Shown here piece after piece: positions 6,017 to 12,059 of a stretch of DNA of 64,000 bases. Made by a program: the position numbers and the translations under genes. Below the pieces are notes generated by a model. It saw only the letters and a list, made by a program, of their open reading frames with translations, ran no database searches and was not told where the DNA came from. Position 1 is the stretch's first letter. Every line of letters begins with the position of its first letter. The stretch spans positions 15,546-79,545 of the forward strand of contig JAJDCH010000002.1 of the NCBI GenBank assembly GCA_029260905.1, read 5' to 3'. Origin of the DNA: Candidatus Levyibacteriota bacterium (GTDB taxonomy: Bacteria > Patescibacteriota > Microgenomatia > Levybacterales > UBA12049).

Positions 6017-8512
6017 ATGAAAAAACTTCTGCCCAGTCTAATACTCTTTCTTTCTGTTTTTTTGGGAATAATGTTTTTTAATACTCCTCAGACTTTGGCT
6101 ACAGGCGCTTCTCCAGGTACAACTGCAACTACGGTAAGTGATGATAAATTGCCTGCTGGCACATGGAGACAAGATTCTGAAGTTACATTTATAGGTAAAA
6201 GCGCAGCAAGAGCCCGCACCATGCTTGATTGGACTATCCAAAATTATAATTGGATTTGTGTCGAGCGTATAGTAGGCACAAGTCAGTGTAATGATACAGA
6301 TAATCCCCTTCAGTCATTTTGGTTGAGGATTGTTACCTATATTGTGGTACCGCTTTTGTTCGTGGCAGTTTTGATTAGTGCTGCAGTAATCATTATTACA
6401 CGTGGAAGATCTGTTACCATCATGCGGCTTTTACCTCGTTTCTTGGGTGTTGTGATTTTAATCTTTTTTACCTATTCACTTCTGCAGTTTTTTTATCAGT
6501 TCTCTGATTTGATACAAGGATTTTTTCTTCGTCATCCAACAGAAACAGCACAGGATGGGACAACATCTTGTCCCCCAAGCTGTATTGGAACTAAAGATTT
6601 GTTATATGTTGGTTGGGATTATGATACTTTTCTTGGCTTGAGACTCGCAAGCCCAGATGCAAATAATTCAAATGCTGAGTCAGCATTCATGTCGCTTCTT
6701 CTCACCAAAATGACTGCCATGACTTACTACGTAATGGTAGGGATTCTTATTTTGAGGAAGATTATTTTATGGTTTTTTATTGTAGTATCGCCTGTCTTTC
6801 CGTTACTTTTGTTATTTTATCCTATCAGAAACACTGCCAAAATCTGGATTGGTGAGTTTTTCCGTTGGCTTCTTTATGCTCCGCTTTTTGCAATTTTTCT
6901 TCAGGGTCTTGTTTTTATGTGGAGTAATCCAGTTGGAATACCGCTTGACTTTAAATCAACAAAAATAGGAGTTGAGCAGGGCAGGATTGGTTCACCTGCC
7001 AAGGATGAGAATACGCTTTTTCCAACAACAGTAAATATTCTTCTCGGGGGTCCACAGGAGGTTGTAACTATTAGCAATAGTATTAATCTTACAGAAACAT
7101 TTGCGAAGTATGTTGTTGCTCTTTTGATGCTTTGGGGCGTTATCATTCTACCCTGGATACTCCTTCAGATCTTTTTGGATTATTCATCCAATTTTTCTGT
7201 AGGTGATACAGCTGTGATGAGAACCCTTCTTAATGTTAAAAATAAACCCCCAGCTCCTACTGGCACCCCTCCGAGTACCGGTCCGCCATTTAGCTTACCA
7301 TTTGCAAAGAAATTTGATTTGCGTCCTCCACAAACCCCACCCTCTGCACCAACTGGAGTAGCCAAGGAATTGCCTATTAGTACAGGTCGAATGATGCAGT
7401 CACATAATATGCCATCAGCTCAGATTAAGGCTCAGACTCTTAGTCTTTCAAATGTTACCCTTCCAACAATTCGTGATATTGCAAAATACGACACAGCAAT
7501 CACTTCTCGTGATACTACCAAGCAACAGGATATTATTAGGATGAGAGATACTCTGACAAAGATCGGTAATCCTGCAAGTTCCAGTTCTGACAGCCAGCGT
7601 TACACCGAAGTCCGCAGCAAGCTAACAAAAGAAAGCCAAGATGGAAATCAGTTGGCAGCATCAATTCTTAGCGCAGCAAATATAGCTACCAACAAGTCTG
7701 CTCAAAATCAAAATAGGCAAATAAAGAATGTTCTTAACCAGATAGCTAATCCAACAACAGCACCAGCTGTTACAAAGAAATTTGACACTCAAAAAGTTGC
7801 TCAGCTTCATGATTCGCTTGCTAAAGCAAGTAAGCAAGGAAACGCTTTGGCAACTTCTATTCTTTCAGTTGATGAAAAGACATCAGAAAAAGAAATTGAG
7901 GCATTGAAAGAGAAAATAGCACAGGCTAAAAAACGAAGCGATAAGCTTGCAGCTGAGGTGTTAGATGTTACAGATAAAGAAGTGGAAGCAGGCCTTCCTG
8001 CCGTAAATAGAGTTCAGACTGTCAGTCAGCAGGATTACCAGGCAGTTAAGGATATGTGGAGAGAGAATTACAAGAATCTTGAAGTTCCACAAGGCATGGC
8101 CGGAACAAGATCAGATTGGATCAAAGAAGATGTTGAAAAAATTAATAATATTGTAAACATGCTTTCATCAACCAGTCCGGATGACATGAAGAAGGGAATG
8201 GATGAAGTTTCTGATATTTTGCCTTTCCTTCTGGTTGGTGGCTTCTCTCAGACAGAAATTATATCTTATTTGAAGGCAAAGAAAGAAGCAGGACAAGAAG
8301 TAAATAGTCAACTTGCCACAGAGGAGGATGATAAGGTAGAGGTTTCAACACAGAAAGCAGAAACAAAACGAGAGATGGCTGCAACGCTTGAAGAGGAAGA
8401 TGCTACAAAGGGACAGGAGGCAAGTCAACCGTCATCTGTTTCTGTTCCTGATGAACCAAAAGTTGATGATGAAAAAGCAGTTAAGCCTGCAGATGAGAAC
8501 AAAAAACAATAA
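6017..8512 (+). CDS. Polytopic membrane protein, possibly VirB6/TrbL-like. It has a long hydrophilic C-terminal tail carrying repeats.
   Basis: Signal/anchor sequence, at least 6 predicted TM helices, then a P/T-rich linker. A C-terminal repeat module (KASKQGNALATSILS...) is homologous to the C-terminus of the downstream Clp ATPase. Confidence 0.45.
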   Translation: MKKLLPSLILFLSVFLGIMFFNTPQTLATGASPGTTATTVSDDKLPAGTWRQDSEVTFIGKSAARARTMLDWTIQNYNWICVERIVGTSQCNDTDNPLQSFWLRIVTYIVVPLLFVAVLISAAVIIITRGRSVTIMRLLPRFLGVVILIFFTYSLLQFFYQFSDLIQGFFLRHPTETAQDGTTSCPPSCIGTKDLLYVGWDYDTFLGLRLASPDANNSNAESAFMSLLLTKMTAMTYYVMVGILILRKIILWFFIVVSPVFPLLLLFYPIRNTAKIWIGEFFRWLLYAPLFAIFLQGLVFMWSNPVGIPLDFKSTKIGVEQGRIGSPAKDENTLFPTTVNILLGGPQEVVTISNSINLTETFAKYVVALLMLWGVIILPWILLQIFLDYSSNFSVGDTAVMRTLLNVKNKPPAPTGTPPSTGPPFSLPFAKKFDLRPPQTPPSAPTGVAKELPISTGRMMQSHNMPSAQIKAQTLSLSNVTLPTIRDIAKYDTAITSRDTTKQQDIIRMRDTLTKIGNPASSSSDSQRYTEVRSKLTKESQDGNQLAASILSAANIATNKSAQNQNRQIKNVLNQIANPTTAPAVTKKFDTQKVAQLHDSLAKASKQGNALATSILSVDEKTSEKEIEALKEKIAQAKKRSDKLAAEVLDVTDKEVEAGLPAVNRVQTVSQQDYQAVKDMWRENYKNLEVPQGMAGTRSDWIKEDVEKINNIVNMLSSTSPDDMKKGMDEVSDILPFLLVGGFSQTEIISYLKAKKEAGQEVNSQLATEEDDKVEVSTQKAETKREMAATLEEEDATKGQEASQPSSVSVPDEPKVDDEKAVKPADENKKQ

Positions 8513-8555
8513 TACTTGTCGTTTGGGTCTATTAGTGATAAATTGTAATTAAGAT

Positions 8556-11500: not shown

Positions 11501-12059
11501 TCAGGAAAACAACGAATGGGCAAAAACTATACTGGCTTTAACAGATCAGACATCTGATACAGATATAGAAAAAATAAAAACAGATCTTGAAAAAGCAAAG
11601 GCAAATGGAGATCAGTTGGCAATCAACGTCCTGCAGGCGATATCTGATTCTGAGACAGCTGAGGTGGCTGGGTCCAGTCAAGAAGAAACTACCAAAGAAC
11701 CAGTTGCTGGCGCAGAAGATAAAAAAGCTGAGGGGGTACCACCTGTTCCAGTATCAGTGGCTGATCAGCCAAAAGAAGTGGTAAAGCCCGCTGTTGATTC
11801 ATCAAAAGGTGCGCCGTTTGGTTTGGCAAACGCGCCAAGTGCGCCTGACACAAGTCATATTACACCAGTTGAGTCCGTTGTTGCAGATCAGCCCGTTGTA
11901 GTTGCAGGAAATCCTGCGCCAGTTGAACCAACACCTCCTGCATCAGGAGGAGCGACCCTATCACAAAGTGCTGGAATGACAGCTTTGAATGAGCACTTAG
12001 AAAAAGAAAACAACATCATTTCTACCTCAGTCGAATCCGATGGTGAGAATATTTCCTAA
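8556..12059 (+). CDS. Clp-family AAA+ ATPase with two nucleotide-binding domains. It is ClpA-like, with no ClpB M-domain, and has an N-terminal Q/P-rich extension and a C-terminal repeat extension.
   Basis: Clp N-domain repeats. D1 Walker A [11 protein letters not shown]; D2 Walker A [38 protein letters not shown] and [10 protein letters not shown] are present. The D1-D2 linker is short, like ClpA. No IG[FL] ClpP-docking tripeptide was seen. Confidence 0.8.
   Translation: [1167 protein letters not shown]

Follow-up and report, generated by a model that had tools for sequence, protein, structure and literature searches.

In the genome of Candidatus Levyibacteriota bacterium (GCA_029260905.1), a VirB6-like membrane protein and the Clp ATPase encoded next to it carry copies of the same domain in their C-terminal tails, which are homologous over a unit of about 86 amino acid (aa) residues. 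Both genes lie on the + strand of the window, a stretch of 64,000 nucleotides of contig JAJDCH010000002.1 (positions 15,546 to 79,545), where they are closely packed within a chaperone gene cluster. The membrane protein (6017-8512, 831 aa) and the ATPase, referred to as Clp1 (8556-12059, 1167 aa), are separated by a gap of 43 bp. The shared unit, hereafter the module, is a previously unannotated domain family confined to one lineage of the candidate phyla radiation (CPR), the Levybacteria. It is native to the membrane protein and occurs only secondarily on Clp1.

Homology of the two C-terminal tails

A full-length BLASTP comparison with compositional adjustment matched the tail of the membrane protein to that of Clp1 with E = 3e-11. 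A second register between the tails was recovered with E = 2e-10 because each tail holds two module copies, the result of an internal duplication. Smith-Waterman scores were compared with those of 2000 shuffles that preserved the composition. The main pair (membrane protein aa 567-652 and Clp1 aa 947-1032) reached z = 16.4, a score attained by none of the shuffles (0/2000), and the remaining pairs among the four copies gave z values of 8-16. A preliminary description of the window, made from the DNA letters and their open reading frames (ORFs), had proposed a homologous module of about 85 aa in these tails and aligned aa 573-655 of the membrane protein with aa 953-1034 of Clp1. Both ORFs are as described there, and the homology stands over the unit of about 86 aa. 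The second, more diverged copy that had been noted in each protein is real as well; it is truncated in the membrane protein (aa 506-566) and full-length in Clp1 (aa 847-933). A six-frame scan of the 64-kb window with a hidden Markov model (HMM) of the module detected no copy outside these two proteins.

The two genes are adjacent, and K, E, A, S and L abound in both tails, as would be expected of a chance or compositional similarity between K/E/A-rich coiled coils, or of a very recent shuffling or gene conversion between neighbours. However, the tail match persisted after hard SEG masking combined with the strictest composition statistics (E = 5e-8), so that the similarity remains significant once low complexity is removed, and the main pair lies 16 standard units above its shuffles. 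The predicted structure is a compact bundle instead of a coiled coil, and the Clp modules are orthologous across genomes and show no closer kinship with membrane modules from the same genome (see below). Both variants are hereby refuted and retain practically no probability.

Fold, sequence pattern and database matches of the module

The 86-aa unit was folded by AlphaFold2 (AF2) from an alignment of 48 diverse copies, with a predicted local distance difference test score (pLDDT) of 93.5 and a predicted TM-score of 0.79. The model, calculated for the second copy of Clp1, consists of five short helices (residues 2-11, 19-37, 41-47, 55-70 and 74-85) packed into a bundle. With lengths of 7-19 residues, these are not the long continuous helices of a coiled coil, and the module as modelled is a compact globular five-helix domain. 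The coiled-coil explanation, raised in the preliminary description as a possible refutation, thereby fails.

Helix 1 ends in the motif IANP and is followed by two similar hairpins with the patterns ...LHxxLxKASxxGNxLAxSIL and ...IExLxxxLxxAKxxGxPxAxxVL. The hairpin of helices 2-3 recurs in helices 4-5, so that the module in itself is an ancient internal duplication with helix 1 in front of it. Conserved positions comprise the hydrophobic core and the polar or turn residues N12-P13, H29, S36, G39-N40 (within GNxLA), T53 and G72; the conserved polar positions beyond the hydrophobic core are Q9, N12, H29, S36, N40 and T53.

Searches of Pfam-A 2025, NCBIfam 20.0 and the PDB revealed no affiliation of the module, in sequence or fold, with a known family. 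The best Pfam E-values of the two tails were 0.15 and 0.28. In NCBIfam neither tail was covered: Clp1 is matched up to about aa 848 at most, and no family was retrieved for the membrane protein. A profile search of the PDB with the module yielded as best match E = 0.015 over 21 residues. In literature searches, neither the module nor a link between Clp and VirB6 in CPR bacteria was found described. The earlier remark that the module had not been described thus holds for Pfam, NCBIfam, the PDB and the searchable literature. A derivation from the Clp_N repeats was ruled out by HHalign, which gave a probability of 0.4% against the Clp N-domain.

Distribution and tail architectures

With the module profile, HMMER was run exhaustively against 1.84 billion cluster representatives and returned only 145 clusters at E <= 1e-3. 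Every cluster that could be interpreted belongs to the membrane-protein or the Clp family. Full-length membrane proteins account for 89 of them and membrane-protein fragments for 35 + 6; Clp proteins or Clp-tail fragments make up 2 + 11, and 2 are borderline matches. A word-indexed search of a collection of 5.8 billion proteins with the four-copy module alignment gave no match. Nineteen unclassified module proteins were considered as a possible third architecture, which was rejected: all are fragments of the two known families.

Homologues of the membrane protein number more than 600, all of them hypothetical proteins of Patescibacteria/CPR, and the named ones belong mostly to Levybacteria. 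The module was present in all 120 homologues listed, with 2-7 copies each. For comparison across species, 80 loci were collected from species-representative genomes by means of the conserved membrane-domain motifs of full-length homologues; the membrane protein carries the module at 80/80 of these Levybacteria loci, in 1-15 copies. The maximum of 19-20 modules was found in one metagenomic homologue of 2790 aa. Module repeats account for most of the length variation (720-2800 aa) of this conserved CPR membrane protein. The tails follow a common pattern, in which a short copy (m), one to four full copies (M) and a closing domain (C, or Cglob) form a set that is repeated one to five times, and the membrane protein of the window represents the minimal form, mMC. 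Clp tails contain full copies only, from MM to MMMMM. The preliminary description was therefore correct on the homology of the two tails, whereas its scope, a module shared by just this pair, has to be widened to a lineage-restricted repeat family of the membrane protein with a secondary occurrence on Clp1.

Descent of the Clp modules

The gene pair is widely conserved. A Clp1 orthologue is encoded within 2 kb downstream of the membrane protein in 67 of the 68 loci with enough flanking sequence, and within 200 bp in 61. The genes dnaK and dnaJ are present alongside in nearly all related loci, a homologue of the small pilin-like protein was detected in 79/80, and a pair encoding a small transmembrane (TM) protein and Clp2 follows downstream in most. 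Among the proteins flanking the membrane protein in these loci, none except Clp1 carries modules. A single evaluable locus, L071, is isolated from this context: its membrane-protein homologue (10001-13357) has four modules, is accompanied within 10 kb by neither dnaK/dnaJ nor a pilin-like or Clp gene, and may be a translocated or paralogous copy.

Modules occur on 20 of the 67 Clp1 orthologues, in 2-5 copies. These form one subclade, comprising the genomes nearest the window and the window itself. The tails of the module-less Clp1 proteins were scanned for diverged modules and contained none (best E = 0.26). As most Clp1 proteins lack the module, neither module sharing nor docking between modules can be the ancestral link of the gene pair. 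All Clp1 orthologues, module-bearing or not, end in a disordered tail of 50-190 aa rich in P, Q, N and A, and in the module-bearing clade the modules were inserted between the D2-small domain and this tail.

For each of the 69 full-length Clp modules (69/69), the nearest relative is a Clp module of another genome, and the modules fall into position-specific clusters of about 20. At 30-49% identity, position-specific orthology has been retained in the window and in 20 species-level genomes. In the module-bearing clade, the identity between Clp and membrane modules is no higher within a genome than between genomes (0.290 vs 0.285, with evenly spread ranks), without any same-genome co-variation or gene conversion. 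Taken together, the nearest-relative pattern and these identities show a single old capture followed by vertical descent, and the recent domain shuffling that had been suggested at first is rejected. The source was presumably the neighbouring membrane-protein gene.

The membrane protein: VirB6 likeness and topology

The full-length AF2 model of the membrane protein has a pLDDT of 79.8, with the modules confidently folded. It contains hydrophobic helices at aa 97-127, 135-170, 218-266, 268-303 and 359-392. Two family-invariant motifs follow the last TM helix and precede the first module: LPFAKKF (aa 427-433; 7295-7315) inside the disordered Pro-rich linker, and PTxRDIAKYD (aa 483-492; 7463-7492) in the first pre-module helix. 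Their invariant columns are P428, F429, P483, D487, I488 and A489. The Cglob domain has many invariant residues, among them W681, Y685, P736-F737 and G741-G742-F743; it has no match in Pfam and was never found on Clp tails.

The VirB6 likeness of the membrane protein is weak. Its match to the Pfam family TrbL/VirB6 (PF04610) has an E-value of 0.0057 (16.9 bits, under the cutoff of 25.9), and E < 0.01 was reached by 3 of 20 family members, the best at 2.4e-5. In a Foldseek search of the PDB, six of the top eleven matches were TrwI/VirB6 chains from the R388 type IV secretion system (T4SS), with probabilities up to 0.92, E-values of 0.18-1.6 and target-normalised TM-scores of 0.41-0.48; a sequence-profile search of the family against PDB sequences gave no VirB6 match. 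The 10-kb flanks of related loci, like the window, hold chaperone and housekeeping genes. Because the matches in sequence and structure are weak, the protein is described here as VirB6-like and not filed as a member of the VirB6 family. According to a survey from 2025 (PMC12102498), recognisable VirB6 homologues are scarce in Microgenomatia, for which it suggested extreme sequence divergence as the reason, and the family described here may be the divergent VirB6 of this group.

The side of the membrane on which the tail lies depends on the number of crossings. Classical VirB6 has five TM segments and a cytoplasmic C-terminus. Hydropathy alone predicts six hydrophobic segments after the signal peptide of the membrane protein, a model that would place the tail outside the cell. 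In that case, the modules could form a surface or adhesin repeat of variable number, as proposed for some extended VirB6 proteins, and the copy on Clp1 would have arisen as a by-product of evolution and would serve an unrelated purpose. The variation from 1 to 20 copies resembles that of surface proteins, and extended VirB6 proteins possess large hydrophilic domains whose role is unknown (PMC12857230, a review from 2025). In the AF2 model, however, aa 218-266 form one continuous helix (pLDDT 88-98) which together with helix 268-303 makes a single hairpin and not three crossings. With helices 97-127, 135-170 and 359-392, this results in five crossings after the signal peptide and hence in a cytoplasmic tail. 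The positive-inside pattern fits the five-TM arrangement: the loop 126-138 has 3.0 K/R and 0.1 D/E residues on family average, and the first 40 residues of the tail are net positive. Cysteines occur solely as conserved pairs in two predicted outside regions, and the tail has none. Moreover, the same domain functions on an ATPase without signal peptide, which likewise points to a cytoplasmic location. We consider an extracellular tail very unlikely; the membrane protein probably has five TM segments and a cytoplasmic tail, in agreement with the modelled helix count, the charge pattern and the placement of cysteines.

Clp1, a ClpB-like ATPase without M-domain

Clp1 combines the features of a class-I Clp/Hsp100 protein: Clp_N, two AAA+ modules with Walker A and B motifs, and D2-small. 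The Pfam domains identified were Clp_N, AAA, AAA_lid_9, AAA_2 (E = 7e-71) and ClpB_D2-small. With intact Walker A and B motifs and the D2 pore loop GYVG conserved in 65/65 orthologues, Clp1 is predicted to be an active unfoldase. The tyrosine of the D1 pore loop is replaced by histidine in 60/65 orthologues (aa 331-339, GASHRGEFE; KYR in ClpB, ClpA and ClpC). Clp1 aligns to the ClpB HMM in two stretches and skips positions of about 417-525. PDB chains of ClpB likewise align in two stretches, as does ClpC with the M-domain skipped, and ClpA aligns in one stretch. The scores against the NCBIfam models remained under their cutoffs for ClpB (TIGR03346; 858.8, cutoff 1232.1), ClpA (703, cutoff 993) and TssH (E = 5e-197). 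The ClpP-docking tripeptide [ILV]-G-[FL] is absent from the D2 insertion of the window's Clp1 and of all 48 parseable orthologues. These results identify Clp1 as a ClpB-derived, ClpP-independent unfoldase that lost the M-domain, the part that couples to DnaK. Both the M-domain and a ClpP-docking loop are missing throughout the lineage.

Several module-bearing Clp1 proteins (among P0171, P0206, P0208-P0210, P0214, L016 and L051) share a motif of approximately AYNYSGIP...RP.GY.SPQ..QEE[VI]E at the extreme C-terminus, after the disordered tail. Clp1 of the window is without this motif.

Possible roles of the shared module

In the most likely reading, the module would bind or tether proteins in the cytoplasm and in this way bring the unfoldase to the site of the membrane protein's tail; to this co-localisation model we assign about an even chance. 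With the tail of the membrane protein in the cytoplasm, both sets of modules would reside in one compartment, and a module on the Clp hexamer would have conferred on it the binding specificity of that tail. What is bound could be further modules or a third, common element, for instance the linker motifs LPFAKKF and PTxRDIAKYD, which are candidate docking peptides. The 12-30 modules on flexible linkers at the substrate-exit face of a Clp hexamer would concentrate it at the membrane complex, and proteins could be unfolded, extracted or supplied by it there. The adjacency of the genes and the predicted cytoplasmic tail make a docking or co-assembly of the two proteins plausible, and the sharing of modules may have reinforced a pre-existing functional link of the gene pair.

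Several points weigh against this co-localisation. The 47 of 67 adjacent Clp1 proteins that carry no module, and the lack of same-genome co-variation, have been presented above, as have the six hydrophobic segments predicted from hydropathy and the reliance of the topology on the helix count. The VirB6 assignment is weak (Pfam under the cutoff, Foldseek E = 0.18, no VirB4 in the window), surface proteins, too, typically have a highly variable number of repeats, and an insertion of the genes for the pilin-like and the membrane protein into a heat-shock operon (dnaK-dnaJ...clpB) could explain part of the adjacency.

In a direct form of tethering, the modules of the Clp tail would bind those of the membrane protein and thereby fix the unfoldase to a probably oligomeric VirB6-like channel. 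The same domain on two proteins encoded 43 bp apart, the predicted cytoplasmic location of both the membrane-protein tail and Clp1, the position of the Clp modules at the D2 (exit) face of the ATPase and the multivalency on both sides (2-5 copies times six on Clp, 1-15 on the membrane protein) are in favour of such docking between modules. Nonetheless, it appears rather doubtful to us in view of the many module-less partners and the missing within-genome co-variation; the monomeric AF2 fold, too, gives no hint of needing a partner.

Conversely, the two proteins might use the module independently and without physical coupling, as a generic spacer, solubility or regulatory element that was copied to the downstream gene by local recombination and fulfils separate tasks, e.g. 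in the oligomerisation or activity of Clp1. This would be in accordance with the very variable copy number, with the disordered low-complexity regions that flank the modules in both proteins, with the majority of Clp1 orthologues that manage without the module, and again with the absence of co-variation. However, the Clp modules were kept with position-specific orthology across the 20 species-level genomes and the window, and their conserved polar positions extend beyond the hydrophobic core. Both features argue for a specific, selected function, and we regard an independent use as unlikely.

A more far-reaching version of the co-localisation model joins the ClpB-derived unfoldase, the VirB6-like channel and the VirB2-like pilin into a VirB4-independent, AAA+-powered membrane machine encoded in a heat-shock operon, in which the modules would dock the exit face of Clp onto the tail of the channel. 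We consider it improbable; if true, pilins or cargo would be unfolded and threaded into, or extracted from, the membrane complex, which would constitute a new way of energising a T4SS-like apparatus.

Comparison with known systems

The membrane protein resembles the extended VirB6 proteins, e.g. TraG of the F plasmid and the VirB6 paralogues of Rickettsiales, in its polytopic N-terminal domain with at least five hydrophobic helices followed by a large hydrophilic, sometimes repetitive extension (PMC12857230; PMC7648143). Additional similarities are the weak TrbL/VirB6 match in Pfam, TrwI/VirB6 as top structural match and the VirB2-like pilin gene directly upstream. In contrast, the extension in our case, for which a cytoplasmic location is predicted, consists of 86-aa five-helix modules and a closing domain, the gene is located in a chaperone operon and not in a T4SS locus, with no VirB4 within 64 kb, the sequence match lies below the Pfam threshold, and the repeat domain is common to a neighbouring AAA+ ATPase.

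Similar to ClpB/Hsp104, Clp1 possesses Clp_N, two AAA+ rings with intact Walker motifs and a ClpB-like D2 and D2-small, has no ClpP loop and is encoded near dnaK-dnaJ. It differs from ClpB, which is defined by a coiled-coil M-domain and coupled through it to DnaK, by the absence of this domain, by the histidine in the D1 pore loop, by a score below the NCBIfam ClpB cutoff, by long disordered N- and C-terminal extensions and, in the clade of the window, by 2-5 C-terminal helical modules. A functional analogy may be drawn to ClpV/TssH, a ClpP-independent unfoldase of the ClpB family that serves the membrane-associated type VI secretion apparatus via an accessory binding surface. ClpV recognises its target by the N-domain and has no C-terminal repeat modules, and the Clp1 locus contains no type VI secretion genes. 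Membrane-tethered AAA+ proteins such as FtsH and the neighbouring Clp2 also hold an unfoldase at the membrane, Clp2 by its own N-terminal TM helices, whereas Clp1 has no TM segment and its putative tethering would be indirect, via the shared module.

Repeat interaction domains, accessory domains on AAA+ proteins and extended VirB6 proteins are each a known kind of part. Their combination, in which the repeat of an extended VirB6-like tail is also carried by a neighbouring M-domain-less ClpB-like unfoldase, is undescribed as far as the databases and literature searched show. For domain annotation, the module adds a new, confidently folded family that is invisible to current domain databases. 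For type IV secretion, a building block of an extended-VirB6-like tail becomes open to study. For AAA+ biology, Clp1 represents a natural ClpB-like unfoldase that lacks the DnaK-coupling M-domain and has gained C-terminal putative binding modules copied from a membrane-protein neighbour. This provides a testable hypothesis for the recruitment of an unfoldase to a membrane complex in organisms that are not yet cultivable.

Gene cluster and further observations in the window

The conserved cluster has the gene order hrcA-grpE-dnaK-dnaJ-pilin-like-membrane protein-clp1 (Table 1). The small protein encoded between dnaJ and the membrane protein matches the Pfam family T4SS_pilin with E = 2.8e-5 (24.5 bits, under the cutoff of 26.6) and a pilin-like conjugal transfer protein of NCBIfam with E = 6e-4. 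In Clp2, the second Clp-like ATPase downstream, D1 is degenerate (Walker A GNIGAGKE, Walker B absent) and D2 is intact.

Table 1 Features of the module-bearing gene pair and its neighbours, with positions in the window
Feature	Position	Strand	Evidence or remark
DnaK	2685-4631	+	
DnaJ	4707-5597	+	
Small VirB2/T4SS-pilin-like membrane protein, 125 aa	5636-6013	+	Signal peptide and two hydrophobic helices (hydropathy); lies upstream of the membrane-protein gene at a distance of 3 bp
Membrane protein, aa 1-392 (VirB6-like polytopic domain), with signal peptide, Cys-containing ectodomain and five long hydrophobic helices	6017-7192	+	
Membrane protein, Pro-rich disordered linker and two pre-module helices	7193-7531	+	pLDDT < 50 for aa 415-466
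Membrane protein, short copy m (aa 506-566): helix 1 and first helical hairpin only	7532-7714	+	HMM domain 506-568 covering profile positions 1-64; z = 8-10 against the other copies
Membrane protein, full copy M (aa 567-654)	7715-7978	+	HMM domain 566-655, 98.7 bits; z = 16.4 against the second Clp copy; high pLDDT in the full-length model
Membrane protein, Cglob helical domain of about 118 aa (aa 661-778)	7997-8350	+	Closes every module array in the membrane-protein family
Membrane protein, acidic disordered C-terminal end and stop codon	8351-8512	+	pLDDT < 50 for aa 777-831
Clp1, N-terminal Q/P-rich low-complexity extension (aa 1-102)	8556-8861	+	All orthologues have an equivalent in front of the core
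Clp1 core (aa 103-835): Clp_N, AAA+ D1, AAA+ D2, D2-small	8862-11060	+	Pfam domains; without M-domain and ClpP-docking loop
Clp1, module copy 1 (aa 847-933)	11094-11354	+	HMM 79.6 bits; z = 16.4 against Clp copy 2, z = 12.9 against the full membrane copy
Clp1, module copy 2 (aa 947-1033), the copy aligned in the preliminary description	11394-11654	+	HMM 97.0 bits; BLASTP; AF2 pLDDT 93.5
Clp1, disordered P/A/V/E-rich C-terminal tail (aa 1034-1167) and stop codon	11655-12059	+	Composition
Small TM protein, 111 aa, without modules	12115-12450	+	
Clp2, second Clp-like ATPase, 802 aa, membrane-anchored, without modules	12460-14868	+	N-terminal TM helices at aa ~12-63

The rest of the 64-kb window is occupied by housekeeping genes (hrcA, grpE, nusA, infB, pnp, RNase J, ftsK, alaS and others). 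VirB4 was not found among its annotated ORFs, in which T4SS genes are represented only by VirB2-like pilin genes (5636-6013 and 475-1278). The latter of these, on the - strand, is oriented divergently upstream of hrcA and encodes a protein of 267 aa with a clear T4SS_pilin domain (E = 2.2e-10); a similar gene is found at the same position in locus L003. A promoter and terminator scan returned 16 terminator-like sites against 13 expected. Sizeable ORFs (821, 364, 190 and 164 aa) without Pfam match at E <= 1e-5 are located at 26447-28912, 18474-20143 and 14953-15447 (-). In the region 35501-38550 (-), a sortase gene (35501-36229) adjoins the gene of a protein of 772 aa, which matches Baseplate_J-like weakly (E = 5.6e-7).

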